Virus record (IMG/VR): IMGVR_UViG_3300012920_000028
Span: 1-64,000 of that record
DNA length: 64,000 nt
Direction: 5' to 3' (one strand)
From: a virus
Shown: piece by piece, positions 10,211-62,771 of the stretch
How the letters are laid out: every line of letters begins with the position of its first letter
Position numbering within the stretch: the stretch's first letter is position 1
Notes under the pieces: model-generated
What the model was told of the DNA's origin: nothing
Seen by the model: the letters and a program-made list of their open reading frames with translations, nothing else
The model's database searches: none
Translations under genes and position numbers: made by a program

Positions 10211-10211
10211 C

Positions 10212-31730: not shown

Positions 31731-34013
31731 CTACCGCTTCAACACCCAGTAAAGCATGGAACCGACGGCAAGCGTAGCCCCTGTTGCTTGGGGTAGCGTC
31801 ATGAGGCTATCTCCGGTCACCGGCTTGTAGGCCGAGGGGACCGGCCTGTAGTTCTCAATTGCTACCGATTGAGCCGAGAACAAGGGGCCTTTGCGTCCGT
31901 ACTTTCGACCTGAAACACCAACGGCTGCACGGGGTGAACGAATGACCTGTCGGGAAACCCACCGTTGGTGGCGCACAGGGTTTCCTTGGTCGTTGGTGCG
32001 AATATCGTGTCCAACGTCCATGCTCTTTGAGATGAACACTTGTGGGGGCATGTTCACGTAAGGACTCAGGAATCTTTGGTAGTACTGCCCGAGTTCTCCG
32101 CTTGCATTCGGGACTGTCCTCACCGGGTGAGCGACATACATGAACTGAGGGTAGCCTTCAGTCGGAGGGTGTTCCCTGAAAGGACTGTTCTTCGCCTTGC
32201 CTGTTTCGTCAAACGCTTGGAGGCCGAACTGTGGAATATCCAATACCGGTGCTTCGTCCCCAAGGTAGTTCATTGACTTCAGATAGCCAATGATTGAATC
32301 CACGTGGGCGAGTGTCTCGACGGATTCCTCATGGATGACGACCTTCGATACCTTCGGAGCACGATTGGCGAGCGTGAGAAGCGAGGTGTCCGCCATGCTC
32401 GTCCAGTTGCTACCGCTCACGAAGTCCGTGTAGGAACTACCCTCAACCCATCGCTCAGACATAAGGTAGGCCGCTTCAACGATGAGGGTCGCGTGGCGCC
32501 TTGCGAGTCCCCTGTCTCCGAGAAGGAAGCCGCTGAGATTGTTGTTGGCGTAGTGAGACAACTCTCCCGTCCTTGAGCGAGCGAGGAATGCCGTTTGAGG
32601 CCACGACCTGTAGGCACCTGAAGAAACAAGCCCGCTATCACTTGCTGCGACACCTGTCCAAATGTCCGCCAATCGCTCAGGCATTTCCTTGAGGAACTTT
32701 GCGGCGGCGTCATAGAACGACTTGTCGATACCCACCACCTGAACACGATGCAACTTCGTTCCGCCCATGTCGGGGTCATACGCTTGAGGTGGGTAGTCCC
32801 CCCTGAAGTCCATGTCGCCTTCCCAATCCCATTCCGTGCTGACGCGAACGGTGTAGTAGTACTGCGTCGGAGGGGCGTAGACCGGCTCCGGGGCGTCGGG
32901 GGTCACGGTGGCTCTTGCGGCTACGGGAGCACGAGGTGCAGGGGCGGGGGGAGGGGGCACGAAGGGGCGCTCACCTCCACGAAGGATGAGGGCAGGGAAG
33001 AGGTCTTGGAGAACAACTTGAGCGGTGAGCGGCTCGCTCTCCTTGCCCGAAGCAAGGAACGGCTGCCCGATGCTCGTCATGGCCGAGTTGGCGAGGTTCG
33101 CTTGAGCGAGGTAAAACGTGTGGTAGGCATCGGTAGGGCGGTAGTGGTAGCAGAACGCCTTGTTCATGGCGTCAAAGGTGGTTGGGGTTCCGTCCCAGTA
33201 GCACGCGAGATGGTAATTGAACCAAGCGTCCATGGAAACATAGACGGTGATTCCTGAACGCTCAACGTACACAGCATTCCCGAGCATTCGCCTAAGCGTG
33301 TTCATGTTTTGGGGGACGATGTTCGACGGGACCAAGTTCTCCCCTGACTTCTGGATAACGAATGCCGAGTTCTTGAGGTACTCCAGTTCTGTGTCCTTGG
33401 AGATTTCCTCGTACATCTTCTCGACTTCTCGCGTAATGGTGTCGAAACGCTCCCCGAGGGGGACCATTTCACTCGTTCCCCAGTTGCGAGGGTCGGGGTG
33501 AGGTGCGTTGATTTTCAGTCTCGCTTCAGGGTGAAGGACGTTCACGATGTCAATTTCCTTTCGCATGTTGGAAATCTGCGTGTCCATGGGAACCTCAAGT
33601 CGAAGGAGGGAATACAGATTGTACCACAGGCGGGTGAACATGGATTGCATGAACGCCGTCTTCTTGGGCTTGTACTCGGAGAGGAGTTCGATGAACGCCC
33701 CCTTGAGTTCTTCGGGCCATTCGAGCACCGTTCCTGTAGCGGCGGTAAGCGCCGTGAGGTTGTCGGTGGCGGAGGGGCTCTCCACTTGGAGCCTCTCACA
33801 CAATGCTTCGACGAAGTTTTCCTTCCCGACGTGAGAAAGGAAAGCGGGGAGGAAGTTTGGACCGACTTCTTGTCCATTGAAGGTTCCTTGGAGGGCGAGA
33901 ACGACGTTGTCCTTCGCCCTTTCCAAGTCCGCAAGTGCGCTCTTTGATTTCTCAAATGCCTTCGTGTACTCACGCTGAGACGCCGTAGGGTTCCGCTTGG
34001 GGAATCCCTGCAT
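31731..34013 (-). CDS. Large hypothetical protein (760 aa) with Pro-rich linker and C-terminal TM
   Basis: Long ORF; N-terminal KRNP; terminal hydrophobic helix plus KR. Confidence 0.75.
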   Translation of the reverse strand: MQGFPKRNPTASQREYTKAFEKSKSALADLERAKDNVVLALQGTFNGQEVGPNFLPAFLSHVGKENFVEALCERLQVESPSATDNLTALTAATGTVLEWPEELKGAFIELLSEYKPKKTAFMQSMFTRLWYNLYSLLRLEVPMDTQISNMRKEIDIVNVLHPEARLKINAPHPDPRNWGTSEMVPLGERFDTITREVEKMYEEISKDTELEYLKNSAFVIQKSGENLVPSNIVPQNMNTLRRMLGNAVYVERSGITVYVSMDAWFNYHLACYWDGTPTTFDAMNKAFCYHYRPTDAYHTFYLAQANLANSAMTSIGQPFLASGKESEPLTAQVVLQDLFPALILRGGERPFVPPPPAPAPRAPVAARATVTPDAPEPVYAPPTQYYYTVRVSTEWDWEGDMDFRGDYPPQAYDPDMGGTKLHRVQVVGIDKSFYDAAAKFLKEMPERLADIWTGVAASDSGLVSSGAYRSWPQTAFLARSRTGELSHYANNNLSGFLLGDRGLARRHATLIVEAAYLMSERWVEGSSYTDFVSGSNWTSMADTSLLTLANRAPKVSKVVIHEESVETLAHVDSIIGYLKSMNYLGDEAPVLDIPQFGLQAFDETGKAKNSPFREHPPTEGYPQFMYVAHPVRTVPNASGELGQYYQRFLSPYVNMPPQVFISKSMDVGHDIRTNDQGNPVRHQRWVSRQVIRSPRAAVGVSGRKYGRKGPLFSAQSVAIENYRPVPSAYKPVTGDSLMTLPQATGATLAVGSMLYWVLKR

Positions 34014-46392: not shown

Positions 46393-46466
46393 TGACTACC
46401 CACGTCACCGTGGGTGACTACTCAGTCAGACTGAGCAGGTTCTTTGAGCGGTGTGCGTTGCACGCT

Positions 46467-47351
46467 TCAAGCGACGCGGCAGAGCGACACGACGCTGATG
46501 ATACCGGCGTTGTTCGCCAGTTCGTCGTCGATGTCGTCCCAAGCGTAGTTGGTCGAAGCGCCCGCGGTTCCGTCGTTGAGTTGACCGATGGTGATGTCAC
46601 CACTGTTCAACGTGTTGAGGTCACCCGCAGCGAAGTTGACGCCCGTGCCGGCGAAGCCGGCGGTGAGGGCCTCGCCCACTCCGGACAGGTCGAGCACACC
46701 GACGCCGCCGCCGGGGGCACCGGCGGTTGCCATCGTTGCGTTGACCTGCGAGTTCTCAAACGACATCTCCATTGCGCGCGAGTACACGTTGTTCCCATCT
46801 GGACCTTGCACGACGCCGGCGTTGGGGCCGACGGCGAAGGTGTTGGGCGCGGCTTCTGCCAGCACATACGGGGCCAGCAGCGTGGCTGCGGGGCTCGCAC
46901 CGTCCATGGTGGTCATTTCAATTGCGCCGACGCTCAAGATGGCTTCGACGTTGAACTTCCCGCCCGCGAAGCCGACCACGGTCCCGAGGGCCGTGGACGC
47001 CTGCTGGGGCAGGACGCTGCCGGACGCGACAGGCACCTCGCGGATGTCACGGACGAGTCCGTGGTTGTCCGCTGCGGTGAAGGTCGTGCTCGTGCCGCTC
47101 ACGTCGCGTGCACCTTGGAAGATGCTCGCGGCGCTCCACGCCACGTCTTCAATGTCCGCGTCTGTGTCGTCTGTGCAGTAGATGAGGTCGGGCTTCAGCA
47201 TGGCTGGCAGGCCTTGTCGGGCCAGTTCCAGCACGTTCTTCGCACCGTTCTCAGTCACGTTGTTGGTTGTCGCTTCGATGACCAGCAGGTTGGTTCGCAC
47301 CACCTGCAATTGGGCACCGTAAGCGACGTCAAGTCCTCCGATTGCTCCCAT
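46467..47351 (-). CDS. Abundant virion protein candidate (capsid-associated)
   Basis: Strongly biased C/G-ending codons, GGAGG RBS, Ala/Gly/Thr-rich. Confidence 0.5.
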   Translation of the reverse strand: MGAIGGLDVAYGAQLQVVRTNLLVIEATTNNVTENGAKNVLELARQGLPAMLKPDLIYCTDDTDADIEDVAWSAASIFQGARDVSGTSTTFTAADNHGLVRDIREVPVASGSVLPQQASTALGTVVGFAGGKFNVEAILSVGAIEMTTMDGASPAATLLAPYVLAEAAPNTFAVGPNAGVVQGPDGNNVYSRAMEMSFENSQVNATMATAGAPGGGVGVLDLSGVGEALTAGFAGTGVNFAAGDLNTLNSGDITIGQLNDGTAGASTNYAWDDIDDELANNAGIISVVSLCRVA

Positions 47352-47384
47352 GTTCTTGTCCTCCTTGTTCCTCCGAAGACAGCC

Positions 47385-47999
47385 TCACGAGAGTTCGCCA
47401 ATGGACTGGCGCTGCTGAATCAATTCATGATGTTGACCGACAACGCATCCGATGACGCGCCACTTCTCGGCACCCGCGATGGTGGAGTTGCCGTAGGTGG
47501 CGGCGCCGCCGACGACGCGGTGGGCGCACACGATGGTCTTCTCGGGCTCGACGACGATGGGCTCTTCATACCAGACGAAGGGCTCTTCGAGGACCTCGAA
47601 AATCTGCTGGTCGACCACGGGGGTCTCGATACCGGAGATGCGCCACTGGTGCTCGGTCACAAGCAGGGGGGTCACGGGGTACTGGATGCCCATGAGGACG
47701 TAGTAGAACTCTTCCAGAGTTTTGAAGTCGAGAACGCGCTGCGCCCAGCCGAAGCCGTCGACGGTCACGCTGTTGGGGGCACCGGTGCTGCCCGAAGAGG
47801 GCACCAACCACTGGCCGAAGGTCCCAAGCACGGAAAATTGGTCTGCGCGGAGCACACCCTTTCCGTATTCGCCCTTGGGCCAAACGCCCTTGTTCTCAAA
47901 GCCCCAGTGGGGGTAGTTCGCCTTGACCTTCTGGTCGATTCGTGCAAGGTAGTCGCTGATGACGGCCGTGGGGCGGTCATAGTACGGTCGTAGTTCCAT
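47385..47999 (-). CDS. Major capsid protein candidate (single jelly-roll size)
   Basis: 204 aa, alternating beta pattern, high-expression codon bias, first gene of the structural operon; fold not verified. Confidence 0.4.
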   Translation of the reverse strand: MELRPYYDRPTAVISDYLARIDQKVKANYPHWGFENKGVWPKGEYGKGVLRADQFSVLGTFGQWLVPSSGSTGAPNSVTVDGFGWAQRVLDFKTLEEFYYVLMGIQYPVTPLLVTEHQWRISGIETPVVDQQIFEVLEEPFVWYEEPIVVEPEKTIVCAHRVVGGAATYGNSTIAGAEKWRVIGCVVGQHHELIQQRQSIGELS

Positions 48000-50215: not shown

Positions 50216-50339
50216 GTCATCACCATGGAACTTGTCGTCATAAGGCCTCCGCCGAGGCCCCGCGGTAGCGGACGTAGCATGACGCCACCGAGGGGTCCGG
50301 GGTCAGCCCCGCCGAGGCGGGGTGAGGCCTTGGTCGGAC

Positions 50340-50576
50340 TCAGAATCGCTTGCTGGCACCGACGCCGAGCGTCGCCGCTGCTCCGAGGAGGAGGGCGAGG
50401 TGACCGACGTCAAGACCGGCGACGACCTGCGTGTTCAAGGTCTTGGCCAGCGGGTTGCCCCGAGCGGGGAAACCGATAGCACCCGACAAACCGAGCAGCA
50501 AGAGTGCATGCCCGTAGTCGAAACCGAACGCGAAGTCCTTGTTGAGGCTCTTCATGAGATTGCCGTATGCGCCCAA
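50340..50576 (-). CDS. Small membrane protein
   Basis: Repeated GH(A/L)(L/A)LLLG TM motif. Confidence 0.6.
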   Translation of the reverse strand: MGAYGNLMKSLNKDFAFGFDYGHALLLLGLSGAIGFPARGNPLAKTLNTQVVAGLDVGHLALLLGAAATLGVGASKRF

Positions 50577-50585
50577 GAAACCACC

Positions 50586-51629
50586 TCAGAAGAGGTTGAT
50601 GTCCTTGCCGCCGAGACCGAACATCTCGCCGTGGGCACCTGCGTGCATTCCTGCGTGCATTCCAGCGTGCATACCGTCGTGGTAGCCGTGGGTCATGCCG
50701 AACATTGGCTCATCAATCACCGAAGGCGAGTTGCCGAGGAGACCGAAGCCAGCGATGCCGTTGACCGCGGTGAGACCGCCGCCCGAGACCGAGATGCTCG
50801 GGAGGAAGTTCAGACCGGCCGCACGGCCGAGTTGGAGAGCCGCGGGGAGCATGGCCGCGATGGTGAAGGCACCAGCGGTGGCGTTGCTCACGTTGAGGAA
50901 CTGCTTCAGCGCGTAGCCAGCGAAGCCGGCCACGGCGATGCTGCTGACCGCACTGCGCATTGGGGTCGCGGTGAGTCCGATGTCCAAACCGACCTTGCTC
51001 AGGGCGGCTTCGACGTAGGCGGGCAGCGACGCGGAGAGGTAGAGACCGGAGCCGAGGGCGACCATGGTCTCGAACTTCATGATGTGCGAGCGGGTCCAGT
51101 TCAGGCCCTTGCTGAAGAAGCCAGTCATCTTCGAGCGCGTGGTGCGGCGGCGAGAGACGGTGCGGCGCGAAGCGGTGCGGCGGCGAGCAGGGGACTTGCG
51201 GCGGCGGCGCGTAGTCTTGCGGCGAGCAGGGGACTTGCGGCGGCGCGTGGTCTTCTTGCGGCGCGTCGTCTTGCGGCGAGCAGGAGACTTGCGGCGGCGC
51301 GTCGTCTTGCGACGAGCAGGTGCCTTGCGGCGACGGGTCGTCGTCTTGCGACGGGTCGTCTTGCGACGAGCGGGCGCCTTGCGGCGACGGGTCGTCGTCT
51401 TGCGACGCTTAGAGGTCGCCTTGCGCTTCGTCGTCTTGCGACGGGCGGGCGCCTTGCGGCGTCGGGTGGTCGTTTTGCGCCGCGTGGTGCGGCGCGCCGG
51501 CGCCTTGCGGCGCGCGGTCGTGCTACGTCGGGAGACCTTTCGTCGGGCCATGTTCTTCACTTTCCTTTTTGTTGTAGTACGCCTCTTCGAGCCCACGGGG
51601 TTCACGATTACGAGTTCCTCGAGAGCCAT
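50586..51629 (-). CDS. Histone H1/protamine-like basic repeat protein with C-terminal membrane domain
   Basis: ~140 aa of RRK(T/S/A)(T/P) repeats, then hydrophobic helices and a GMHA repeat. Confidence 0.8.
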   Translation of the reverse strand: MALEELVIVNPVGSKRRTTTKRKVKNMARRKVSRRSTTARRKAPARRTTRRKTTTRRRKAPARRKTTKRKATSKRRKTTTRRRKAPARRKTTRRKTTTRRRKAPARRKTTRRRKSPARRKTTRRKKTTRRRKSPARRKTTRRRRKSPARRRTASRRTVSRRRTTRSKMTGFFSKGLNWTRSHIMKFETMVALGSGLYLSASLPAYVEAALSKVGLDIGLTATPMRSAVSSIAVAGFAGYALKQFLNVSNATAGAFTIAAMLPAALQLGRAAGLNFLPSISVSGGGLTAVNGIAGFGLLGNSPSVIDEPMFGMTHGYHDGMHAGMHAGMHAGAHGEMFGLGGKDINLF

Positions 51630-51787
51630 CAGAGACGCCTGAATGCCCTTCACCGACTTCCCGTATATGAAGAAAATGAGGTCCTATGTTGCGCTATATG
51701 ATACGCATACCTCAAATCAAGGGTCCGGTATTCGGAAATCGAGACTGAAGGAACCTTCATACCCGCGTCGTCCGTGCCTTCGGACGG

Positions 51788-52048
51788 ATGTCCAATCGTC
51801 ACGCCGTCCGGGCTCGTAAAATCCCGGTCAGTGTGACTCTTTCACCCGACGACTATGACTTTCTCGAAATGCTCGTCAACACGAGGCGTGTAGCAACAAG
51901 AACTCACGCTATCGAGCGTGCTGTTCAGTTGCTCAGGGAAGAGTTCCAGATGATGCAGTCATTGATGGCCCAACAGAGAGGAATGACCGGAGTCCCTCCA
52001 CAAGCGCAGCAGCAACCGCCGAATACGCATCGTCGTCCTCCTCATTGA
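51788..52048 (+). CDS. Ribbon-helix-helix regulator
   Basis: K.PVSVTL......L..LV......TRT.AI..AV. Confidence 0.65.
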   Translation: MSNRHAVRARKIPVSVTLSPDDYDFLEMLVNTRRVATRTHAIERAVQLLREEFQMMQSLMAQQRGMTGVPPQAQQQPPNTHRRPPH

Positions 52049-52514
52049 CCTCGATGAGAAGTGAGGGCGTATCGAAAAGGATGCTCGCCACGTTCGTCAG
52101 GTAGTTCTCAAACCCCGCGGCTTCGGTGAAATTGGAAATGCCGTCTTCTTCGAACTGCTCCGTCATAGAAGCGAGCAGTTGTGGCTCCGTCACGGCGGGA
52201 ATCGCGAACATCACGACCGTTGATTGCCCCCATTCTTCGAGGTTATACCCATGCACAGTTTCTCCTTCCACGAATGGGAAGGAATGAATGTCCAAGTGCA
52301 CGTTTGCTTTGGGGAGCAATTCGAAGAACTTCTTTGTGAAGGTAGTGTCGTTCGGGCGGTTAAGGTCGATGACCTCGCGGGGGATTTCCCCGACGAGACT
52401 TTCGAACTCAAGACCTTCTTCCGTGAGCGCCCTCTCAAGAATCGGGCGGATGATGGTTGAGCCGAAGTCATACTGTCCGCTTGGCGCGGCGTGGGGGAAG
52501 GTCAGGAGAATCAT
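51933..52514 (-). CDS. Zn-carboxypeptidase-fold hydrolase (N-formylglutamate amidohydrolase-like)
   Basis: TFPH, DLNR, LDIHS, LIEV. Confidence 0.6.
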   Translation of the reverse strand: MILLTFPHAAPSGQYDFGSTIIRPILERALTEEGLEFESLVGEIPREVIDLNRPNDTTFTKKFFELLPKANVHLDIHSFPFVEGETVHGYNLEEWGQSTVVMFAIPAVTEPQLLASMTEQFEEDGISNFTEAAGFENYLTNVASILFDTPSLLIEVNEEDDDAYSAVAAALVEGLRSFLSVGPSMTASSGTLP

Positions 52515-53203
52515 CTGTTCAGCCGCAGACGCTTGACCGATTTTACGCTACCGCCAGCGTTCCTTGGTTTCTCGTCACCAATCGGCCGACACTTGTTCCA
52601 TGTTCCTGTCCCGTGCGTACTGTAGTACCAGTACTTGTATTCGGGGCTCGCGAAGAAGGGAACGTGTTCAACGTAGTGTTCGAGGTTGCGGCTCTTGAGG
52701 TAGTCGGGGCGGTCGTCAATCCTGAACACTACCTTGTTCTCGGATTGGCTCCATACCGTTTCCGACATCAACTGAAGACGTTGAGTCATTCCGATACCGA
52801 CGATTCCCTTTCCGGCGCCGACGAGCCACAGTTGCTCGATGCCGTCGTTGGTCCCCTTTCGGACGAAGGTCTGGATTTCGTCAATGGCGATGATTCGACG
52901 AATCCGCTTGAAACCCGGCTTATTGGAAACCATGAACACACGTTCGATGACCTTATTCAGCGCCGCTACTCTCTCTTCCTTTCCTACGGGTGGGTGGAAG
53001 ACAATGGAAGGTGTCTTGGAAAGGAGAGCGGCATAGACCTCCATTGGAGTCTTGCACACACGTCCGAGGTCCGTGATTTCTGCCTTGGGGTCCACAAAGA
53101 TTGTGTGAAGGCCGTCCTTCTGAAAACGCTTGAACATCTCGGAGACGAAATACGTCTTGCCGCTGCGGGTCATTCCGAGAACTGCGGTATGTCGCTTCTT
53201 CAT
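52511..53203 (-). CDS. FtsK/HerA-superfamily genome packaging ATPase
   Basis: Walker A GMTRSGKT, FVDPK, Walker B IAIDEIQ, TQR; ~230 aa stand-alone ATPase; ATGA overlaps. Confidence 0.75.
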   Translation of the reverse strand: MKKRHTAVLGMTRSGKTYFVSEMFKRFQKDGLHTIFVDPKAEITDLGRVCKTPMEVYAALLSKTPSIVFHPPVGKEERVAALNKVIERVFMVSNKPGFKRIRRIIAIDEIQTFVRKGTNDGIEQLWLVGAGKGIVGIGMTQRLQLMSETVWSQSENKVVFRIDDRPDYLKSRNLEHYVEHVPFFASPEYKYWYYSTHGTGTWNKCRPIGDEKPRNAGGSVKSVKRLRLNR

Positions 53204-53697
53204 GTTCTCATAGAGCGCGTTTGAGACCATGCTACAACACCAGCACCAACGGCGAGAAGACCAAAGAGACGGCTCGGAGGGACGGCCATAAAGGACTCGG
53301 CGTAGGCCGGGAAGTTCTCCTTGAACCGTTGGCGAAGGTTGTTGTTGTCGGTCACCCGAAGCCATGCTACCGGGTTCATGACGTCGGGGTTCACGCCGCC
53401 GGTGTGCTTCAAGCCGAGAGCGTGACCGTATTCATGGGCGAGCAGGTCGAGGTTCCCCTTCGCACCGCTTCGCACCGTAATGGTGTTTCCAATGGTGACC
53501 CCTTGAGGGAAGTAGCCACGGTTCAAGATGTTGTAAGAGGCACGCGCCATGTCCCCTGCGTACCATTCCTGAATCTCTCCACTCGCGTGAATCGCGTTCA
53601 CGTATTGCGACCAATGTGCTTCGCTGAGGGTAGCAATCCGGACACCATCCTCGCCTACCGCGATAACGCGGAAAGAAGAGAACGATTCCGGCGTCAT
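53200..53697 (-). CDS. Metzincin metalloprotease with C-terminal TM
   Basis: HEYGHALGLKH plus Met-turn DVM. Confidence 0.85.
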   Translation of the reverse strand: MTPESFSSFRVIAVGEDGVRIATLSEAHWSQYVNAIHASGEIQEWYAGDMARASYNILNRGYFPQGVTIGNTITVRSGAKGNLDLLAHEYGHALGLKHTGGVNPDVMNPVAWLRVTDNNNLRQRFKENFPAYAESFMAVPPSRLFGLLAVGAGVVAWSQTRSMRT

Positions 53698-53701
53698 GTG
53701 T

Positions 53702-56700
53702 TCACCACTCGAACATGTTGAGGAACTCGTCCTCGTCTTCCTCCACCCAGTCGTGCCTTGAGGAGTTTTCCTTGATGAGACCCGCTTTGACCGCAAGACT
53801 GTAGTCGCCCATTTTCTTCCCGTCTTTCATGACGGTGTTTCCGAGCGTGACGAAGGAATAGACGCGGCCGGACGCCCATTGGTGCTGCTGAACACCGGGA
53901 CGGTGACCGGTGCGCCACGCCGCCAAACCCTTGTCGTACACCTTCTCAAGAATCGCCTTGTCGACACCTGTCGTCTTCGACATGCGGGTGAGGAAGGAGC
54001 CCTTCCCCTTCAAGGGACCATACAAGCGAGCGAACTTGGTTCGGTACTTGGAAGGCGTGGTTTTCATTCCCCGCGCCGTAGCCTTGATGTCCGATTTCCA
54101 GAATTCGTACGCTTTCGGGTCGTTCACGTCGTACTTGTAGCCTTGGTCAATCTCGTACTCGGCAATCGCCTTCTCGACAGATGTCAGGCCTTTCAGGTAC
54201 TTGGAAGGAATCTTCTTTCCACCGGGAGTACGGGGGTTCGGGCGAGGAAGATTCGACAGTTGCGTAATCGAAATGGTTTGGGCCGTGAGGGCTGAAGGGT
54301 AGGAAACGTCAGAAGGGAACCATGGGTTCGGGCGAGGAAGGTTCTCCTTCATCCAAGCATACGTCTTAGGTGCCTTCTCCTTGAGTTTGGCGCGGCCTTC
54401 GCCGATACCGGGGATGAAATAGACGCGGGAATACAGGGGGGCGCGAAGCCTGATTTCATCGAGGTCCTCCTGCATTTTACGGATGTTCTCGGCGTATTCC
54501 TTGTCTGTGTAGTACGCTCCGGGCTTCGTGTGCGGCGCTTTCTTGGTTCGGAAACCAATGGTGTTCTTCTCGTCGCGGATTTTCGCTTGACCGCCCTTTC
54601 CCTCACGCTTGTCGTTGTCGCCGAAGACGAAGAGGACCTCGGGGTGGTTCCGGACATATGTCGGAGTGATTTTCTTTGGTGGGTTGTCTTTCACTTCGCT
54701 TATGTTTTTCGCAGGTATTGTTTCTGGTGTGGTCCATTCCATACCGTTCAATGTGAGGTCAAGTGTTTCGGGAACCGATATTTCAAGTAAGGCAAAATCC
54801 TCATGGTTGGGCATCTTGGTTTTCCAAAACAATGCTTCTTCTTTTTTTGAAGCAAGGTAAATTCTTGGTTTGAATGATTGGATGTATTCTTCAAACTTCA
54901 TGTCCGGCGCTATCAAGTTTTTTTCTTTAGCAAATTCGTACAATTGGCCTTTCAATGCTCTTGTAAGTGGGCCATGTTGTGGAACAAGGCCATTTTTCTT
55001 GATGCTTGGTAGGTGTTCTTTCAATGTGAGATGGTACAGTTTTTTCGGCATCGGCAACTCTTCACCTCTTACGCTTTTGGCTGGGTTCTTCTTCGGACCC
55101 ATCAACACAGGCACTTTGCCGTACTTGCGCTTCTCCGTCATCCCAATCCACGGAACGTCGGGGCACGGAGGCATTCGGGAGATGTCGTGCTTGCGCGCCC
55201 AGCGCCACGGGTCGTGTCCCCACACCCACAGGCCGAGGAGGCGCCGTGAGACTTGGTTCTGCGTCTTCTGCTCGCGCACGAGGGGGCCTTTCTGGTCAGC
55301 GTTGTAGGGGAACGCGCCGTGGCGCTTCACGAAGCGCACCTGACGCTTGCACCAATCCCAATCGGTTTCTCCGTCGAGTGGGTCATCGGACGGGCCAGTC
55401 CATTCCTTCATGGCCTTCTCATAGTAGTTCTCGATGATGCGTGGCCCGATTTTGATGTAGTCCTTCGGGCCGGTCAGGCCGAGTTTGGCGCGCATTTTGA
55501 GGATGCGACGGCCGCTCACACGCCCACTCTTGATGCCCTGAGCGTCTGCTTCTTCTTTGGAGAGACCGGCCTTCTTCCCGAGGGGAGAATCAAGGAACGC
55601 CTTCAGTTCCTTGTTCTTCATGTTGATGAGATGAACCCACTCCTCGAACCACTCGAAGAGTTCCTTTGGTGGGTTTTCAATTTCCCACGGCTCTTCCCCC
55701 GGTTCCCATTCCAAGTGGTTTTCCATCTGGTGTCTTGTCCATACAGGGTACTTCTTCTTTGGTTCCCACACTCGATAGGGCTTTTGAGCCGGGTCAGACC
55801 ATGGCTTAAGGTTCCCACCACCTGCCGGGGAATAGAAGGAGCGACGGTACTTTTCTCGGGCCTGCTGGTCGAGGAAAAAGAACTCCACCCGTTCGACCTT
55901 CAGGTTCACGTCATCATCAGGGTTGAGTTCTGATTCTGTGGGGCCGAAGGAGAAGTTGTTCCGGAGGGTCGAAATCCAATTGATGTCTTGGAAGGGGAGG
56001 CGTGCTACGATGAGGACTTGGTTGGCGTGAGGGAAAAACTGCGCGACCGAAGTTCGTGTTTGAACGAACATGTCTGCTTTCTTCTTATCGGTGGTCCATG
56101 CACTGCCAAGTCCGTGCGTCTGCCATGACTCTTCGAGTTCTTCGCTCGAAGCGGGAGACCAAATCGCACGGTAGATGGGTATGGAGTCCCTCGAACCATA
56201 CAGCGATTTCCAATGTTCAAACAAGTGTTCGAGGAACCTTTTGCCGGAAGAGCCGGTGTAGCCCCAGCGGCGGAAGTTCCTCTTCATTTCCTTTTTGTTT
56301 TCTCTTTCCACGAAACGCAGCAGACCTTCCAAACCACTTGATGTAAGGACGTCCTTCAATCGGATTCCTTCAGGTGGGTTCCCCATCGGGAGGGCAGAAG
56401 AGTCAAGCAAAGCGGAGAACCTTTCGGCTTGAGCATTTGGAACAAGGACATGTGTCCGGTTCTCAACCGGAGAGCGAATCGTCCCTTCAGGGAGGTAGGA
56501 GTCGTTGAAGTACGAAGGGATGGCGAAAGCACTGTAGTCGCCACTATCCGCCATGTTGTTGAAGGAAATGATGCGGCGGCGTAGTTCCCTGTAATCCCTT
56601 TCAGCATCGGTCTCCGGGGCAAGACCCTGACCAAACGTCGCTTGCCTACCAAGACGTTTAGGCACTTCCTGCACGACTTCAGCGATGGGGACTGCTGGGT

Positions 56701-59392
56701 TCTCAAGGGGGATTTCGTCAATCCGAGAGAGGAAGTTCTTCCGGTAGTTCCCCGTTTCCATGTCGACGAAGAGGTCGAAGTCTTCCTTCGACGCTCGCGC
56801 GATTTGAGCGGGCATCAGGAGGGCGCGCTCCTTCGCTTCCTTCTTGCTCATACCTCCGCGCTCAAGGAGCATGGCTTCGAGAGCCGAAGTGGAACGGTTC
56901 TTCGGTCGGAGGTAAATGGAGAACATGTCGGGGAACAGGTCCTTGTACTTCTTCATCCCGCCAATGTTGACGTCGATGACGTTGATTGGGTATTTGAAAT
57001 CGGCGAATCGGCGGCCATACAGGTGACCGTTCTTCATGCGACGGTATTCGAGGAACTCGTCGTTCTGAATCATTTCCATGAACTTCGCCTTCGACACGAA
57101 GTGCTTGTCCACTCCGTCGCGCTCCTTCGGTCGTGGTGGCCGTGTCGTGTAGGCGAGGACCTCGCCCACTCCGGGGAACTTCTTCTTGAGTAGGCGAATC
57201 GAAGTGGACTTCCCCACGCCTGCTGGCCCGGAAATGCTGATGAGGCGAACGCGCGAAGCCTTCCTCGGATTGACCGCGACCACGGGCACTGCCGCCTGCT
57301 CCGGCTCTTCGAGTTGCACATCCTCGATTTGCTGAAGAGCACGGCCGAGTGTGAGGTAGATGGCGTTCACCGCCTCGCGCCCGAGGTCCATGTTTAGGTT
57401 CGGGAAATCCTTCCGGAACGTGAGGTCGAAGTTGCCCGTTCCGTTCGAGGCGCGCACATTGAGGTCATAGCCGTCGGGGATGACGTCTCCGAGTTCGGGG
57501 GCGTTGGTCGTGTTGAGAATGAGGTAGCCGTTTCCGCTCGTTTTGTTGGTGGGGTACCAGTAGTCCTTCGACGGGTCCACATTGTGTCGAAGGTATGGCT
57601 CGAACGCGGCCTCCATCAAGGCTGCTGAAATGTCTTGGACCCCGTAGTTCCACCTGTATTTGACCGAAGCCACCAAGGGACGCGGGTTCTGCCTCGGCTC
57701 GTTGAGGAAGGCCCGCAACTTCTCGACATGCTGCCTCAGATACCAGTTCTTGAAGTCTGCACCGTTCACTTTCCCGTCATAGTGCCCCGCCGACTTGAAC
57801 TCCTGAGCCATACCCGTCCACATGAACGGGTGGTGCGTGGCGATGTCAGCCATGAGCATGAACAAGGCCGCACCGTAGTATGGGCCGACCTGCGTTCGGA
57901 AGAAGTCCTCGGAGATGTTCCTACGCCCGATGTCCGATTCGAGCATCACCGAAACGATGTCGTCGAGGGGCTCGGGAATGTCGAGGTCGCCGGAGATGAA
58001 GGAGTCCCACATCATCTGAGCGCCTTTCGAGTGGTGGATTTCGTTTCCGCTATCCTTCTGAATGTTCTTCCCCGCGTCATGATAGAGGGCGAGAATGTAG
58101 ACCAAGTCAAGCATCGAGTAGTTCGATGCGATGTTCTCGTTTAGGTAGGCACGCACCTTCTTCCGAAGGTCGGAATCGAACCCGATGTCCTCCCACTTGA
58201 ACATCCGTCCTGAAGGGAATTGCTTCGTTGGCTCAAGGTGGTGACTGAGCCAGAAATAGCAGAACATTGTGTGAGCGTATTCATCTCCGCCATAGTGGAC
58301 GAAGTCGTAGTCCAAACCCGAGAGTTCCTCCAAGGCCGGGTGATAGAGCCGGGAGGGAGGTTGGATTTTGCTGCTGACCGGACCGGGATTGGCCCGAACT
58401 TCGAAAGGGTCCTCGTCCCCCTTCGGGACCTCTTCAGGTGGTGTGTAGTTGGGGTTCACGAACTGCTTGTAGGAAATGGTCGCGATGGAACCGAACTTCT
58501 TGTTGAAGAGGTTCACCATGTGTTGCGTGACGGCGTGGCAGAACTCGACGTCGTCCGAGCCCTTGTGCTTTTTTGCCTCCACTTCGCCCGCTTCGAGCAT
58601 AGCGTCGATATCAGCAATGAACTTCTCCTCGTCAAAGCCGAGGTATTTCTCCACACGGGAGTTCTTCACCTTGAATGTGAAGCGGTCGATACGGTCACGC
58701 ATGACGGTGTAATGCCGCTTCACACCTGTCGAGAAGGAAGCATCGAGGTACCATTGAATATCGTCGGCTGAAGTGAGCGAAGGCTCGTCCTTCGACGGGT
58801 GCGTGTGGTAGAAAGCAACCTCTTCGCCCGGGCGCTTGTTGATTTTGATTTTGGGCATGATGAGCGAGGCTCGGCGATGATAGATGTTCCCGTTCTTCGT
58901 GACCCACCCGTAGGATTCTCCGGTGAAGGAAACGAAAGACCACAACTTGTCGAGGAACGCCTTGTCATCGAGTTTGCTGTAGCGGTGCTTGGTGAAGTGC
59001 TTCTCCGGCTTGTCGATGACCATGCCGTGCATTTCGGCCTTGAACTCGCTCACCGAAGTCGGGTTCTTCAGCACGCCGTCGAAAGACAGGTGTCCCTTAG
59101 CGATAGTGACCATTCCTCCGGGGTTTGAGCGGACGACTGAAACTTCGTCGCACCGGATGAGAACGTGAACCATCTGTGGCTTTCGGTCGCGGTAGGGAAC
59201 GTATCGCCCTTGGTCGAGGAAGTGCTTCATGGCCTCGCGGGCTTCCTTCCTCTTCACTTGGCCGTCGAACATGACGAACCACGTTTGATTCTCGATGTCG
59301 AGAGTAGCCTCTTTGACGTTGAGAGAGCCAAGAGCCGAGCCGCCCCTCGGAAAGTGCGTGTACTTACGCACCTGTCTCGGACTCAGCGTCAT
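53702..59392 (-). CDS. 1896-aa multidomain polyprotein: JAB/MPN, HD, guanylate kinase, ART-like, DUF3140-like, Tpt1/KptA-like, VFGDN domain, DUF5824-like
   Basis: E..HTH.........SADD; H...YHD...HH...D; SGPAGVGKST/YTTRPPR..E.DG; YRA..S.WTT..E.E; INM..EL..SGRRI..WGHDP; LYHLT....I...GL; VFGDN..GGQA; AAWRTGHRPG. Confidence 0.8.
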   Translation of the reverse strand: MTLSPRQVRKYTHFPRGGSALGSLNVKEATLDIENQTWFVMFDGQVKRKEAREAMKHFLDQGRYVPYRDRKPQMVHVLIRCDEVSVVRSNPGGMVTIAKGHLSFDGVLKNPTSVSEFKAEMHGMVIDKPEKHFTKHRYSKLDDKAFLDKLWSFVSFTGESYGWVTKNGNIYHRRASLIMPKIKINKRPGEEVAFYHTHPSKDEPSLTSADDIQWYLDASFSTGVKRHYTVMRDRIDRFTFKVKNSRVEKYLGFDEEKFIADIDAMLEAGEVEAKKHKGSDDVEFCHAVTQHMVNLFNKKFGSIATISYKQFVNPNYTPPEEVPKGDEDPFEVRANPGPVSSKIQPPSRLYHPALEELSGLDYDFVHYGGDEYAHTMFCYFWLSHHLEPTKQFPSGRMFKWEDIGFDSDLRKKVRAYLNENIASNYSMLDLVYILALYHDAGKNIQKDSGNEIHHSKGAQMMWDSFISGDLDIPEPLDDIVSVMLESDIGRRNISEDFFRTQVGPYYGAALFMLMADIATHHPFMWTGMAQEFKSAGHYDGKVNGADFKNWYLRQHVEKLRAFLNEPRQNPRPLVASVKYRWNYGVQDISAALMEAAFEPYLRHNVDPSKDYWYPTNKTSGNGYLILNTTNAPELGDVIPDGYDLNVRASNGTGNFDLTFRKDFPNLNMDLGREAVNAIYLTLGRALQQIEDVQLEEPEQAAVPVVAVNPRKASRVRLISISGPAGVGKSTSIRLLKKKFPGVGEVLAYTTRPPRPKERDGVDKHFVSKAKFMEMIQNDEFLEYRRMKNGHLYGRRFADFKYPINVIDVNIGGMKKYKDLFPDMFSIYLRPKNRSTSALEAMLLERGGMSKKEAKERALLMPAQIARASKEDFDLFVDMETGNYRKNFLSRIDEIPLENPAVPIAEVVQEVPKRLGRQATFGQGLAPETDAERDYRELRRRIISFNNMADSGDYSAFAIPSYFNDSYLPEGTIRSPVENRTHVLVPNAQAERFSALLDSSALPMGNPPEGIRLKDVLTSSGLEGLLRFVERENKKEMKRNFRRWGYTGSSGKRFLEHLFEHWKSLYGSRDSIPIYRAIWSPASSEELEESWQTHGLGSAWTTDKKKADMFVQTRTSVAQFFPHANQVLIVARLPFQDINWISTLRNNFSFGPTESELNPDDDVNLKVERVEFFFLDQQAREKYRRSFYSPAGGGNLKPWSDPAQKPYRVWEPKKKYPVWTRHQMENHLEWEPGEEPWEIENPPKELFEWFEEWVHLINMKNKELKAFLDSPLGKKAGLSKEEADAQGIKSGRVSGRRILKMRAKLGLTGPKDYIKIGPRIIENYYEKAMKEWTGPSDDPLDGETDWDWCKRQVRFVKRHGAFPYNADQKGPLVREQKTQNQVSRRLLGLWVWGHDPWRWARKHDISRMPPCPDVPWIGMTEKRKYGKVPVLMGPKKNPAKSVRGEELPMPKKLYHLTLKEHLPSIKKNGLVPQHGPLTRALKGQLYEFAKEKNLIAPDMKFEEYIQSFKPRIYLASKKEEALFWKTKMPNHEDFALLEISVPETLDLTLNGMEWTTPETIPAKNISEVKDNPPKKITPTYVRNHPEVLFVFGDNDKREGKGGQAKIRDEKNTIGFRTKKAPHTKPGAYYTDKEYAENIRKMQEDLDEIRLRAPLYSRVYFIPGIGEGRAKLKEKAPKTYAWMKENLPRPNPWFPSDVSYPSALTAQTISITQLSNLPRPNPRTPGGKKIPSKYLKGLTSVEKAIAEYEIDQGYKYDVNDPKAYEFWKSDIKATARGMKTTPSKYRTKFARLYGPLKGKGSFLTRMSKTTGVDKAILEKVYDKGLAAWRTGHRPGVQQHQWASGRVYSFVTLGNTVMKDGKKMGDYSLAVKAGLIKENSSRHDWVEEDEDEFLNMFEW

Positions 59393-62300
59393 CGTCAGAC
59401 CTCATGAAACGTGCAAGCGGGGACACCGCCTCCGTATCGGGGAGAGCAGCGTCGGAAATGAACTCTCCGCCCGGGTTCTTCTTCGCAAGACGAAGTGCAC
59501 GGGAGTGAATCTCTCGGTCTTTCGAAGCATCGAACGACCTGTCCCTGAAATCATTCTTCATGGACTCGTCCTGACGAACGAACTCACCTGTGTCGAGGTT
59601 TTCTTCAGCCCACCCGAAGTCCCCTCTCGTTTCAGCCGGGCGGCGAACGCGGTAGCCGAGGCGCGGGTCCATGTTCACACCTACCGCGAACTCCGCGTCG
59701 CGTCGTGCTTGGTCATCATCCTGCATGTAGTCCATGAGCAATTGATTGTGATACAAGGTTTCCTCTCTCGCGCCTTTCTCATGCACGACACCGCCGATGT
59801 TCGGGCCTTCCTCGTCAAACACACCGTCTTCGGAACCGACAATGAAACCCGGAATCGAAAGGTAGTACGAAACGCCATGTTTGTCCTTCGGGAAACGCAT
59901 GAAGGCGTCAGGGGCGTAGTGAAGACCCCACTTCCCCGGGCTCAAGACGAGTTGGTTCTCGAACTCGCCCTTGAGGTCCTTGTTCACGTCGACCGGTTGT
60001 CCACCCCTTCCTCGAACACGTCCAGCACGCTGGTCATATCCACTGCTCATCCACGAGGTCGGTGTTCCAACAACCCTCGTTTCACTCTCTGTTCCGGGTT
60101 CAACACCATAGGTCATGCCGGGATAGTCGGGGTGAGAGTATTCGCGAGGGAAACCACCAATCCATCGCGGACCGTTGTTCCAGCCATAGAAGGGGTTCAT
60201 TCGAACACGTGTTAGACCGGACTTTGAAACAAAATGGCGACGGGGTTTCTGATGAGAGTATTTGAACCTCCGAGATTCGGGGTTCTGAATCGCTTCGACT
60301 CCGGTTCTTTTCCCCTTTGGCGCAGCCTTGATGTTGAAACCTCCCGCTTCGCTCACTTGCGTGTGCCGAATGTCGGTTGAATTGAGCGGGTCCTTGTCTT
60401 CACGGACGCGGAGGAGGGTCGGTGTGCCGCCAAGGCCGCGAGTCGTGTAGGGACGTGGCGTGACGCTATATTGGCTCCCTCCACGTTGATATGCGGTGGA
60501 ACCGGGAGCGGCGCGGTCCTGCTTGAAATAGAACGAAGGGCCACGAACCTTCTCAACATCAGACAGGCGCATAAACTGAACTTCCACAACCACCTTCGGC
60601 TCGACGAGGAGGATGTCGGGGTATTGCTCTCGCAATTTCGGTGAGCGAATCACGTGTTCGCCGTCGGCGTATTCCGTGCTCCTCATGGGGCCGATGACCT
60701 GACGGAAAAGCGCGGCACTCTCTTCTTTCGTGAGCCTACCCGGTCCGACATAGCCGACGGGAACATACACGTTCCCAAACTTCATCTTTTTCGCGACGCC
60801 AATCATGACGGTCCCGATTTCTTCCTTCTCGTCTTCGAACGTCTTGGCGGTCGTACCAATCCCCATGATAACGACGTCAAGCGTGTACTTGCGCTTCACC
60901 TTGTAGGTCTTCCCGTCCACGATGAGCACGAGTCCCTCGTGGCCGCGCGTCTTCACCTCAGACTCCCACTTTGCCTTGATGACCGGGTAGTGGTCGTCCA
61001 TCAGAATGAGAGGGTCAACACACCGGATGCGGTCGCCGTCAAGGTCGGCCACCTTCGCGATGCGCTCGTCAAAGGAAAGGTCCTGAACCTTCACGCCGTC
61101 CACAGAATAGACGTCGGTGATGACGAACTTCAGTTTGGAGAAGTCCTCGGGCGAGGGGTTGTCTTTCCGCAAGAAGCCGACGGCCGACGGTCCGAGAGGG
61201 ACGCCAACGTCGTCCAGAAGAATGGACTCACCGAGAACAGTCAGTTCATCGAAGCCGAGACGCGCGCACATCTCTTCGAAATCGCGCGTCAGGTGGTTGT
61301 CCCACCCGAAATGTCCGCCCTTCCCCTGCAGCATGATTGTGCGCTGAAGGTTGATTCCTGAGTCAAGACGTTCGCCGTTGATTCTGAAGCCACCCCGCTT
61401 GTTGAAGGAGAGCATCCCAAGTTGTCCGTCGTACTTCGTCATGACGGCGACCTTCTTTGCGTCCTCAAGCACGGGGCCGAGGTCGCGGAACGTCTTCTCC
61501 TTGAACCGCTTCTTCCACTTCTCAAGGAACGAAACGAACTCGTGGCCCTTGTCTTTGGCGGTGACGCACGGTGGCGCCGCCCGGGTGTCGCTGAATCCCG
61601 CGCCAATGCCGGCGCTCACGAACCACCTATCCACCACACCTTGCAAGTGCTCGAACCGCTCAATGACGTTCATGGGGTGTGCGGACATTGGATTGAAGTT
61701 CTTCAGGTCGCTGATTGATACGGGGATTCGACACAGGCCGGTTGAGCCTTCAAGGTCGTTCATCTTGAAGTGCATTCCGAAGAACATACCCGTAGTCTGA
61801 TTCTGGCCGAAAAGGCGGTCGTCAAGGACTGGAAGCATCTCGACCATGCCCTGCTCTCGGTCGTAGGTCCAATGCTTCTTGACTCCCCTCAAGAGGTTGT
61901 TCTTGCAGTATTCCTTCATGGCCTGCATGGTTTCGAAGCCGAAGCCGTTCACGTTCAGCCAGATTTGGAACGAGCGCCCGGTGAACTGAATGAGAATGTC
62001 GTGTTTCTTCGACACGTGTTTCGCAATCGTGTGGATGTGTTCGAGGTAGTCCTCAAACGCCGCCCCTGAAACATTGTCGAAATCGAGGACGGCCATCTTC
62101 GGGTAGCCTTCGGGTGAGGGTCGGAACTGGATGCCCCGAATCGCACGGTTGGTTCCTCCACTCACGGTGATTTCAGAACCCGTGGTCTCCGCGAAGGTCT
62201 CGAACTTGGCCGCGGACATGAAGCGTTGAACGTCGGCCTCGCTCTTGATTCGGTACATCTGACTCGTCGTGACGCCGTCTCCGCGACTACGGCTGTACTC

Positions 62301-62771
62301 CACCGTTTGAATCGGGTGGTGCATGGTCTTCCTCAAACAGAACGGGAGGAACACTCGGTTGTATTCCCCCACGAAGGTCTTGATGAGTTCGTGTTGCTTC
62401 TTCGCCTCCGGCGTATCGGAAAGGTCCGGAGCGGTTGGGAAGAAGCCGAGCGTGAGAGAGAAGCCACCGTGCACCTTGGCGTAGGCGTCGCGAAGGATTG
62501 GTCGGAGGACTTCCATCTGTTGCTTCGTCGTGAGGTTCACGTCGCGGCGAAAGAGCGGGTCTCCGGTGCTTGGGTGGGTCCAATCCGCGGCTTTCAGGGG
62601 AGGGGTGTTGTTGTCGAACGCCTTCGTCCCCATCTGAAACATCTTTCGTTGTCCGAGGAACTTCACGAGGAACTCTTCCATGTCGGACTCCGTGACGCCA
62701 AACCCGGCCGAAGTCACGTAATTGGTGTACCTCCCCCATTGTTCGAGAACACCGTCATAGGGAGAAATCAT
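59364..62771 (-). CDS. AEP primase/polymerase-like domain fused to ATP-dependent DNA ligase (LigD-like) with N- and C-terminal extensions
   Basis: LDFD and FTG.SFQIW (AEP-like); KYDG, GE, F..D, EGLV, KVK..TLD.VI.G, EP..VVEV, R.REDK (ligase + OB fold). Confidence 0.8.
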   Translation of the reverse strand: MISPYDGVLEQWGRYTNYVTSAGFGVTESDMEEFLVKFLGQRKMFQMGTKAFDNNTPPLKAADWTHPSTGDPLFRRDVNLTTKQQMEVLRPILRDAYAKVHGGFSLTLGFFPTAPDLSDTPEAKKQHELIKTFVGEYNRVFLPFCLRKTMHHPIQTVEYSRSRGDGVTTSQMYRIKSEADVQRFMSAAKFETFAETTGSEITVSGGTNRAIRGIQFRPSPEGYPKMAVLDFDNVSGAAFEDYLEHIHTIAKHVSKKHDILIQFTGRSFQIWLNVNGFGFETMQAMKEYCKNNLLRGVKKHWTYDREQGMVEMLPVLDDRLFGQNQTTGMFFGMHFKMNDLEGSTGLCRIPVSISDLKNFNPMSAHPMNVIERFEHLQGVVDRWFVSAGIGAGFSDTRAAPPCVTAKDKGHEFVSFLEKWKKRFKEKTFRDLGPVLEDAKKVAVMTKYDGQLGMLSFNKRGGFRINGERLDSGINLQRTIMLQGKGGHFGWDNHLTRDFEEMCARLGFDELTVLGESILLDDVGVPLGPSAVGFLRKDNPSPEDFSKLKFVITDVYSVDGVKVQDLSFDERIAKVADLDGDRIRCVDPLILMDDHYPVIKAKWESEVKTRGHEGLVLIVDGKTYKVKRKYTLDVVIMGIGTTAKTFEDEKEEIGTVMIGVAKKMKFGNVYVPVGYVGPGRLTKEESAALFRQVIGPMRSTEYADGEHVIRSPKLREQYPDILLVEPKVVVEVQFMRLSDVEKVRGPSFYFKQDRAAPGSTAYQRGGSQYSVTPRPYTTRGLGGTPTLLRVREDKDPLNSTDIRHTQVSEAGGFNIKAAPKGKRTGVEAIQNPESRRFKYSHQKPRRHFVSKSGLTRVRMNPFYGWNNGPRWIGGFPREYSHPDYPGMTYGVEPGTESETRVVGTPTSWMSSGYDQRAGRVRGRGGQPVDVNKDLKGEFENQLVLSPGKWGLHYAPDAFMRFPKDKHGVSYYLSIPGFIVGSEDGVFDEEGPNIGGVVHEKGAREETLYHNQLLMDYMQDDDQARRDAEFAVGVNMDPRLGYRVRRPAETRGDFGWAEENLDTGEFVRQDESMKNDFRDRSFDASKDREIHSRALRLAKKNPGGEFISDAALPDTEAVSPLARFMRSDDDAESETGA

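Follow-up and report, generated by a model that had tools for sequence, protein, structure and literature searches.

A single open reading frame (ORF) in an uncultured double-stranded DNA (dsDNA) virus is, with near certainty, a modular cassette whose module borders carry a recurrent Asn-Pro (NP) dipeptide, referred to here as the seam. The window comprises positions 1 to 64,000 of IMG/VR record IMGVR_UViG_3300012920_000028, a 72.8-kb fragment estimated to be ~52% complete, and the ORF is located within it in Table 1 together with its modules and neighbors. The modularity of the encoded polyprotein, the conservation of its seams, their position in linkers, the restriction of module exchange to seams and the restriction of the extended motif to the late gene block are all computed results. 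From these sequence comparisons we consider it moderately probable that the NP seams are protein-level processing sites in modular cargo polyproteins.

Asn-Pro seams at module borders

Does the number of NP dipeptides in this ORF exceed what its composition would give? Fourteen are present, at amino acids (aa) 90, 110, 313, 335, 569, 708, 898, 1005, 1157, 1240, 1436, 1570, 1689 and 1719, versus 5.6 expected, and a count of 14 was reached in 5 of 5000 shuffles. A first-pass annotation made from the sequence alone had listed 11 of them, all of which were found where it placed them (Asn codons at 59065, 58390, 57688, 57271, 56701, 56380, 55675, 55087, 54685, 54328 and 54238); absent from its list were aa 90, 313 and 1157. 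It had also proposed RNA polymerase (RNAP) and family-B DNA polymerase (PolB) as controls, and NP is enriched in neither (5 versus 3.5 expected and 1 versus 1.4 expected, respectively), which leaves its idea standing. A general trait of the proteins of this virus was rejected as the source, as the other 77 ORFs hold 30 NP versus 32.2 expected. A search of 5.8 billion proteins returned 124 relatives at E ≤ 0.001, 120 of which were listed (1049–3213 aa); in a phage collection the 110 matching records covered single modules only, and none spanned 80% of the query. Over 121 sequences (the ORF, its cluster representative and 119 relatives) the observed NP number 1842 versus 590 expected, a 3.1-fold excess with every ratio at least 1.9, and NP is the third most enriched among the 400 dipeptides in the relatives. 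Chance or composition is excluded as the source of the excess by the shuffles, the relatives and the motif counts given below.

The full seam motif is [V/P/A/I]-[R/K/L]-x-N-P, with V, P, A or I at -3, R, K or L at -2 and an enrichment of P at +2. Conservation was followed in an alignment of the query with the 93 of 119 relatives whose match covers the N-terminal core (94 sequences). NP110 and NP569 are kept in 94/94 and NP708 in 90/94; the Asn of NP898 is kept in 94/94 and its Pro in 92/94, and for NP90 the corresponding numbers are 84/94 and 66/94. At NP110, NP569, NP708 and NP898 the Asn never becomes Asp, Ser or Thr while the flanks vary, and the NP columns rank among the invariant columns of alignments A1 and A2. 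Homologs that keep the domains and lack NP, which the first-pass annotation had named as evidence against a role of the dipeptide, are not what the relatives present, in that NP is conserved in them. One site, EVRANPGP (aa 330-337), has the form of a 2A-like ribosome-skipping signal (NPG/P). A reading of the seams as such signals is scarcely credible, however: only 1 of the 14 has NPGP, the 1824 sites of the relatives show an enrichment of P, R and S at +2 and none of Gly, an archaeal host is probable (see below), and 2A, with its D(V/I)ExNPGP context, is to our knowledge confined to eukaryotic ribosomes. The motif statistics contradict NPGP, and 2A-like skipping was rejected.

The positions at which homology begins and ends coincide with the seams. 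Six clusters of BLAST breakpoints have medians at aa 901, 1005, 1239, 1439, 1571 and 1715, beside NP898, NP1005, NP1240, NP1436, NP1570 and NP1719, such that 6/6 lie within 4 aa of an NP (chance probability ~1e-7). For the 491 internal ends of high-scoring segment pairs (HSPs) the median distance to an NP is 4 aa versus 38 for random places (4 versus 39 on the subject side), and 85% of them are within 15 aa of an NP versus 23% for random places; 0 of 2000 random NP sets did as well. HSP ends cannot be treated as independent of one another, and it is fairer to count the six clusters. Pfam envelopes likewise sit between NPs, with guanylate kinase (GK) in NP708-NP898, DUF7831 in NP1570-NP1689 and DUF5824 after NP1719. 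Among 119 relatives there are 23 module orders, the Pfam sets also differ between relatives, and two module blocks are swapped in order between this virus and a related complete genome, G002. These results bear out the "expandable cassette" gene of the first-pass annotation, with independent modules that are acquired and lost, reordered and passed on laterally, in each case at NP.

Two AlphaFold models were used to place the NPs relative to folded regions, one of aa 1-1010 with a mean predicted local distance difference test (pLDDT) score of 71.6 and one of aa 890-1896 with a mean of 62.7, the low confidence of the second being partly due to thin alignments for the variable modules. In the first model 5 of 8 NP lie inside segments of pLDDT < 50, which make up 16% of residues (P = 0.004), and in the second 8 of 8 do so (32% of residues; P = 1.2e-4). 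Across both models, low-confidence linkers hold 11 of the 14 NP. A disordered linker, aa 320-369, follows the JAB-like module, and NP313 and NP335 are assigned to it.

One hypothesis is that the seams cleave themselves, the Asn side chain attacking its own peptide bond (asparagine-lyase chemistry) with Pro at +1 favoring the reaction and no protease required. Asn-Pro self-cleavage is known from the NPTH motif of FlhB/YscU, and spontaneous Asn-Pro scission is slow in free peptides, which counts against the hypothesis. The excerpted text of PMC10328401 describes Asn-Pro as the self-cleaving scissile pair of RsgI, reovirus mu1 and aquareovirus VP5, and the present seams share with these the strict Asn-Pro, a strictly conserved Asn followed by Pro being seen at NP110 and NP569. 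Moreover, NP90 lies in the turn of a modeled beta-hairpin (E74-88 / E94-104), the geometry given for RsgI in that excerpt, and no classical maturation protease was detected in the four records searched. However, the known cases are single sites in folded domains and require a folded, strained turn, whereas the present proteins have about a dozen sites each, mostly in linkers of low model confidence that are probably disordered. Conservation around NP extends over no more than five residues, and the preferences at -3 and -2 resemble protease subsites. Self-cleavage may apply to NP90, hardly to the disordered seams, and as a general account it is improbable.

Exchange at the seams was also observed within natural populations. 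In contigs from other samples (3 runs, 2 studies; 99.6% identical), 55667 is followed directly by 56373, so that 705 nucleotides (nt) are missing, exactly the module aa 1006-1240; one of the bridging contigs, 2612 nt long, shows 10 differences. The joint falls inside an 8-nt repeat, AACCCACC (Asn-Pro-Pro), found at 55668-55675 and 56373-56380. Parts uncovered by contigs (e.g. 55718-56191, in all four runs) were not counted alone, and only the bridging joint was used. The 705-nt junction recurs in P0004, an independent assembly of 96% identity, which has also lost aa 1437-1688, again exactly. Other contigs have loose ends that, in the coding direction, run from different upstream modules straight into the seam before DUF7831 or before DUF5824. 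Such ends were counted at 19 distinct places: an NP hexamer is no more than 10 nt away at 7 of them (6.5% expected, P = 1.2e-4) and farther off at the remaining 12, at 8 of which the distance exceeds 35 nt. In P0111 and P0114, whose backbones are 36-40% identical to that of the present ORF, the low-GC module aa 1437-1570 is 87-90% identical; it is a recently transferred cassette. Because the same short coding motif stands at both ends of every module, cassettes can be lost, gained and transferred in frame by recombination between seams, and it is for this reason that the array is expandable.

An alternative hypothesis arising from these junctions places the whole function of NP in the DNA: the dipeptide would be kept solely because its codons supply microhomology for recombination between cassettes, and the protein would make no use of it. 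The population loss between two identical 8-nt repeats is in keeping with it, as are the six seams beside variable modules (aa 898, 1005, 1240, 1436, 1570 and 1689; 54680-56701, minus strand), all of which are AACCCA although CCA accounts for 27 of the 125 Pro codons in the gene. We regard this hypothesis as very improbable on four grounds. The never-shuffled core seams NP110, NP569 and NP708 use other codons, which differ (AAC/AAT, CCC/CCG), and are fixed as amino acids; the upstream V/P/A and R/K/L preferences are degenerate in DNA; the motif also ends leaders of non-modular proteins; and CCA is simply the common Pro codon in lower-GC relatives, so that AACCCA at variable seams can be a donor signature, matching the low GC content at third codon positions (GC3) of the variable modules (0.42-0.61 versus ~0.75). 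As the Asn and Pro codons differ from seam to seam, selection appears to act on the amino acids and not on the DNA.

The seam motif in the late gene block

The five-residue motif is found 13 times in the four giant late ORFs of this record versus 0.67 expected, and 3 times versus 1.52 expected in 77 others. In G002 the late block (7 ORF calls including five giant genes) holds 18 motifs versus 0.91 expected, and 171 other ORFs hold 3 versus 3.28. The five giants of G002 (1439, 934, 978, 1455 and 2208 aa) are consecutive at 116084-137944 (L016-L017), occupy ~21.9 kb or ~16% of the genome and contain 46 NP versus ~17 expected; since 4 of the 5 are not homologs of the protein from which the motif was derived, they confirm it independently. 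The polyprotein adjacent to the present ORF, which contains a DNA-ligase region, belongs to a family with 125 NP versus 43.9 expected in 19 homologs, and among 20 sequences of it NP859 and NP1099 are kept in 20/20 while NP830 has its Asn in 20/20 and its Pro in 19/20.

The motif also ends short leaders of other late proteins (Table 1). A K/R-rich protein, conserved in relatives, has a leader ending in NP in 7/7 viruses examined; a 167-aa protein has a leader of five residues; and a 760-aa protein carries the motif near its start, where conservation is not informative, as only two close homologs exist (82-94% identical). With its long repeats of Arg, Lys and Thr (RRKAPARRKTT...) and a C-terminal half that is hydrophobic, the K/R-rich protein resembles a DNA-condensing protein anchored in the membrane.

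What would one motif do in such a set of proteins? It could be left uncut, with [R/K/L]-x-N-P acting as a docking motif for a packaging receptor, a chaperone (the virus encodes a thermosome) or a scaffold, such that proteins are loaded whole. The seam is the sole element common to the four or five giants and the leader-bearing proteins, it lies in disordered segments, and it can occur in tandem within one linker (NP326/333/342 in G002), as is usual for multivalent docking motifs. The excerpted text of PMC5512222 adds that the virion RNAP of phage N4, a polyvalent protein, is packaged unprocessed. A docking motif, however, is not required at every module border, and it would leave the free module order and the autonomy of the modules unexplained. 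A strict Asn that admits no Asp, Ser or Thr, followed by a strict Pro, is better suited to catalysis or to an S1/S1' pocket, and the five-residue leaders (MPRFN-P) look like propeptides. For these reasons docking is an unlikely alternative to processing.

Proposed processing and candidate proteases

The hypothesis that the seams are processing sites leads to the following model. The ORF is one of four adjacent giant "polyvalent" proteins in the late/morphogenesis block of a ~140-kb archaeal-type dsDNA virus, with ~12 autonomous modules joined by disordered linkers that bear [V/P/A/I]-[R/K/L]-x-Asn-Pro. The seam would act in the protein, most likely as a site for endoproteolysis of the Asn-Pro bond, and the modules would thereby be set free as individual enzymes, probably while the particle is being loaded or afterwards. 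The short leaders of other late proteins end at the same seam, as in the substrates of viral maturation proteases. We infer the cutting, the scissile bond, the enzyme, the packaging in virions and the role of the released enzymes, which the first-pass annotation took to be effectors acting on infection. A processing site fits better than a passive linker with the strict Asn-Pro, the subsite-like preferences, the placement in linkers and leaders, the tandem sites with spacers and the late-block restriction beside the packaging ATPase.

The most likely enzyme would be a membrane-anchored mini-metzincin, with the JAB-like module and a retropepsin-like protease as alternatives. The mini-metzincin gene starts a few bases past the polyprotein stop and is directly downstream in 7/8 related loci (a set that includes L005 and L007, whose rows are identical), and its HExxHxxGxxH and M-N-P Met-turn are invariant in 7/7 sequences. 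It matches Pfam M10 at E 4e-4, with a score of 20.7 that is below the cut-off of 24. The family is tiny (32 matches at E ≤ 0.001 and 9 at E ≤ 1e-10 with HMMER in 1.84 billion representatives); one of the HMMER matches is a eukaryotic matrixin-like triple repeat, and a scan of viral contigs for wider relatives returned the same family only. Prediction of a complex between metzincin aa 1-140 with Zn and polyprotein aa 1675-1735 gave a score of 0.00, a "no answer" with controls absent that counts neither way. The retropepsin-like protein scores above both cut-offs (PF13975, 29.9 bits versus 28.2; PF13650, 26.3 versus 24.3). The third candidate, the JAB-like module, lies inside the polyprotein, is flanked by seams and has invariant catalytic-type residues. 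Its motif, E159...H196xH198...S208xxD211, is invariant in relatives with 9 residues between HxH and S, the JAMM/MPN+ motif being E ... HxH x7 S xx D on an MPN fold; the proteins that a language model ranks as similar belong to the JAB type (0.79-0.85, no more than leads) and the order of secondary structure is compatible, and there is no Pfam or PDB sequence match (best PDB profile E 0.12).

Several observations weigh against processing at the seams. All support for it is comparative. The split ORFs of relatives start at an internal Met inside domains and not at NP, which means that natural "pre-cut" forms are not represented by them. Some NPs are not seams, as NP313 is kept in 13/94 sequences and NP1157 in 7/15 HSPs, and in the ligase polyprotein NP360 and NP538 are not conserved. 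Indel borders among very close relatives are sometimes up to ~20 aa off NP, which indicates that exchange occurs in linkers and not always on the NP codons. Packaging in the virion, and delivery into the host along with the DNA as in polyvalent proteins, are argued solely from gene position beside the packaging ATPase and conserved late genes and are less certain, and BLAST found no common N-terminal targeting domain in the giant proteins, which makes the seam their only common element and fits a docking role too. None of the three candidate proteases is tied to the seams by the comparisons made: L009 is without a metzincin between the polyprotein and the ATPase, and the retropepsin is present in 2/8 records (this one and the complete G002), the six negatives all being incomplete. 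A maturation protease of HK97 type (S78) or adenain type (C5) was found in 0/4 records, the complete genome included. Pro at P1' is disfavored by most proteases, and we know of no metzincin, JAB or retropepsin with Asn-Pro specificity.

A bolder form of the processing hypothesis, which we hold to be possible rather than probable, is that the seam constitutes a new processing code of archaeal-type dsDNA viruses. A virus enzyme with an unprecedented specificity for Asn-Pro (the rare mini-metzincin or the JAB-like module, perhaps aiding Asn-lyase chemistry) would dissect several giant cargo polyproteins and trim the leaders of core proteins inside the particle, and the seam would double as an in-frame cassette junction. 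If true, this would be a natural plug-and-play polyprotein system. If the seams are cut, marine archaeal-type viruses would have a protease-site code not known before and probably a protease of novel specificity; this would explain how viruses carry and renew sets of enzymes as exchangeable cassettes, and it would offer a compact two-residue linker code for engineered multi-enzyme polyproteins. Even if the seams are uncut, a strict seam with nucleotide-exact exchange is a clear, testable rule of protein modular evolution.

Modules, related systems and the virus

The polyprotein has a fixed core made of the N-terminal domain, the JAB-like and HD modules, a module of no known family and the guanylate kinase, after which come variable cassettes, the Trp-rich block, more cassettes and DUF5824 (Table 1). 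The domain calls of the first-pass annotation fared unevenly. GK (PF00625, score over the cut-off; a GK fold with P-loop), DUF7831 (its "VFGDN domain") and DUF5824 are solid; HD is supported by a fold match together with a Pfam score of 20.7 bits, below the cut-off of 22; and the DUF3140-like call holds in part, at 24.4 bits versus a cut-off of 25 and over the first ~50 residues only. The JAB call is without a profile match, as noted above. The ART-like (aa 1006-1240) and Tpt1-like (aa 1437-1570) calls were not established (Foldseek E 0.48-3.6; Pfam PTS_2-RNA E 0.21). The acidic/aromatic tail at aa about 1877-1896 (53702-53760, minus strand) ends in …EEDEDEFLNMFEW and that of a distant relative in …SEDDPFEEYF; it may be a binding motif. 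Enzymes found in the relatives are GK, NDK, NUDIX, ITPase, HD, glutaredoxin, acetyltransferase, SET and DNA ligase, a set of mainly nucleotide house-keeping functions with some protein or DNA modifiers that fits "cargo enzymes" and gives no specific indication of anti-defence.

Which known proteins are most similar? No paper describing these NP seams was found in the literature on Asn-Pro cleavage, viral polyproteins and polyvalent proteins. The logic of the seams resembles, by analogy, the substrate sets of viral maturation proteases, whose sites include (M/I/L)XGX-G for adenain, GG-X in pp220/pp62 for pS273R of African swine fever virus (ASFV) and (L/I)XE for T4 gp21, with phiKZ gp175 as a further such protease. 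Shared features are a short motif with a strict residue in several late or core proteins, leader removal, dissection of a polyprotein and a basic DNA-associated protein among the substrates. Unlike in those systems, the motif is Asn-Pro, no S78 or C5 homolog was detectable in the four records mentioned above, the modules are exchangeable enzymes and not structural proteins, and cleavage is putative. Polyproteins of RNA viruses and retroviruses have a similar beads-on-a-string layout, with spacers between tandem sites and a protease-like module (here JAB-like) flanked by seams; in contrast to them, the present modules are shuffled and laterally exchanged between relatives, and a dsDNA virus with operons does not need a polyprotein for expression.

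Among known kinds of protein, the polyvalent proteins that phages and conjugative elements encode come closest (Iyer, Burroughs, Anand, de Souza and Aravind 2017, PMC5512222). As there, many unrelated enzymatic domains are carried on one polypeptide, the genes are late and the architectures vary fast; peptidases are embedded or neighboring (here the JAB-like module and the metzincin, as candidates), and packaging with possible proteolytic release has been proposed. The polyvalent proteins have 2-15 unrelated domains, and ~12 modules are counted here, with GK, DUF7831, DUF5824 and HD recognized. In the excerpted text no uniform two-residue seam is mentioned and the word "linker" appears 0 times, although its supplementary architectures could hold similar linkers. 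The present system also differs from the polyvalent proteins described there in its archaeal-type host, in a domain set of mostly nucleotide house-keeping functions in place of ArdC, ParB or MuF, and in the presence of four or five such proteins per block; an MPTase domain was looked for and not found.

Table 1 Features of the window, with the polyprotein and its modules first
Feature	Coordinates	Strand	Remarks
Modular polyprotein ORF, 1896 aa	53702..59392	-	Open throughout; 14 NP, about 12 of them seams
aa 1-110, conserved N-terminal alpha/beta domain	59063..59392	-	Ends at NP110
aa 111-335, JAB/MPN-like module	58388..59062	-	Invariant E159, H196, H198, S205, S208, D210, D211
aa 336-569, HD-type phosphohydrolase module	57686..58387	-	
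aa 570-708, conserved module without known family	57269..57685	-	Bounded by NP569 and NP708
aa 709-898, guanylate kinase module	56699..57268	-	Pfam GK envelope 716-877
aa 899-1005, variable module without known family	56378..56698	-	Common to 11/119 relatives
aa 1006-1240, variable module	55673..56377	-	Missing from near-identical strains
aa 1241-1436, highly conserved Trp-rich block	55085..55672	-	DUF3140-like start
aa 1437-1570, low-GC module	54683..55084	-	GC 0.41, GC3 0.42 versus ~0.56, ~0.75 elsewhere
aa 1571-1689, DUF7831 module	54326..54682	-	Pfam 1.5e-32, envelope 1574-1683
aa 1690-1719, 30-residue spacer	54236..54325	-	Flanked by two PRPNP seams
aa 1720-1896, DUF5824 module and acidic/aromatic C-terminal tail	53705..54235	-	Pfam 2.7e-22, envelope 1729-1852
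Neighboring polyprotein, 1135 aa, DNA-ligase region	59364..62771	-	NP seams at aa 830, 859, 1099
Mini-metzincin, 165 aa	53200..53697	-	Candidate processing protease; HEYGHALGLKH, Met-turn M-N-P, C-terminal membrane helix
FtsK/HerA-type ATPase	52511..53365	-	Syntenic with polyprotein in 8/8 related loci
K/R-rich (about 29%) protein, 355 aa, hydrophobic C-terminal region	50586..51653	-	11-residue leader ends V/L-N-P (here V-N-P)
Late protein, 167 aa	49712..50215	-	Starts MPRFNPP (five-residue leader); L002 ortholog MPRYNPP
Retropepsin-like aspartic protease, 115 aa	48366..48713	+	DTGA ... IIGRD; PF13975, PF13650
760-aa protein	31731..34013	-	Seam motif PKRNP at residues 5-9
Fused archaeal-type RNAP A'/A''	10164-14990	+	
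PolB	14953-17754	-	
Thermosome	37530-39068	-	
Serine recombinase	19691-20584	-	Resolvase and Recombinase domains
Two adjacent N6/N4 DNA methylases	23096-25423	+	
PD-(D/E)XK nuclease	27661-28572	-	

The record encodes a fused archaeal-type RNAP A'/A'', a family-B DNA polymerase, a thermosome (NCBIfam thermosome_alpha, 488 bits versus a cut-off of 450) and RNase H, and since a thermosome and an archaeal-type RNAP are encoded by the virus, its host is probably archaeal. G002 measures 140,336 bp with terminal repeats present, and the contigs encoding relatives of the polyprotein, from marine metagenomes, reach ~143 kb. When 10 large ORFs of G002 were compared with PHROGs, none matched a terminase, a portal or an HK97 capsid, and the PF04451 capsid of nucleocytoplasmic large DNA viruses (NCLDV) was not found in the record of this virus. 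No paper on this lineage was found in the literature on archaeal, Poseidoniales and Varidnaviria viruses and magroviruses, nor was a paper on DUF5824 found. The lineage seems to be undescribed in the literature searched and to consist of widespread marine archaeal-type viruses; the stretch is present in DNA of 20 runs from 11 studies, and for 52400-59500 no RNA run was listed.

Inspection of the late block provided further minor observations. A 204-aa protein (47385-47999, minus strand) is 86-98% identical across six loci (77% in L009), the polyproteins of these loci being only 32-46% identical; no other late gene comes near this conservation, and the protein has no Pfam match and may be the major capsid protein. 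A 193-aa protein (51933-52514, minus strand), syntenic in 7/8 loci, has a weak N-formylglutamate-amidohydrolase-like match (E 0.0096) and may be a late-block hydrolase. Two plus-strand ORFs, 46020-47993 and 50322-51701, overlap conserved minus-strand late genes, encode low-complexity Arg/Ala/Gly sequence and are probably shadow frames of GC-rich DNA rather than genes.

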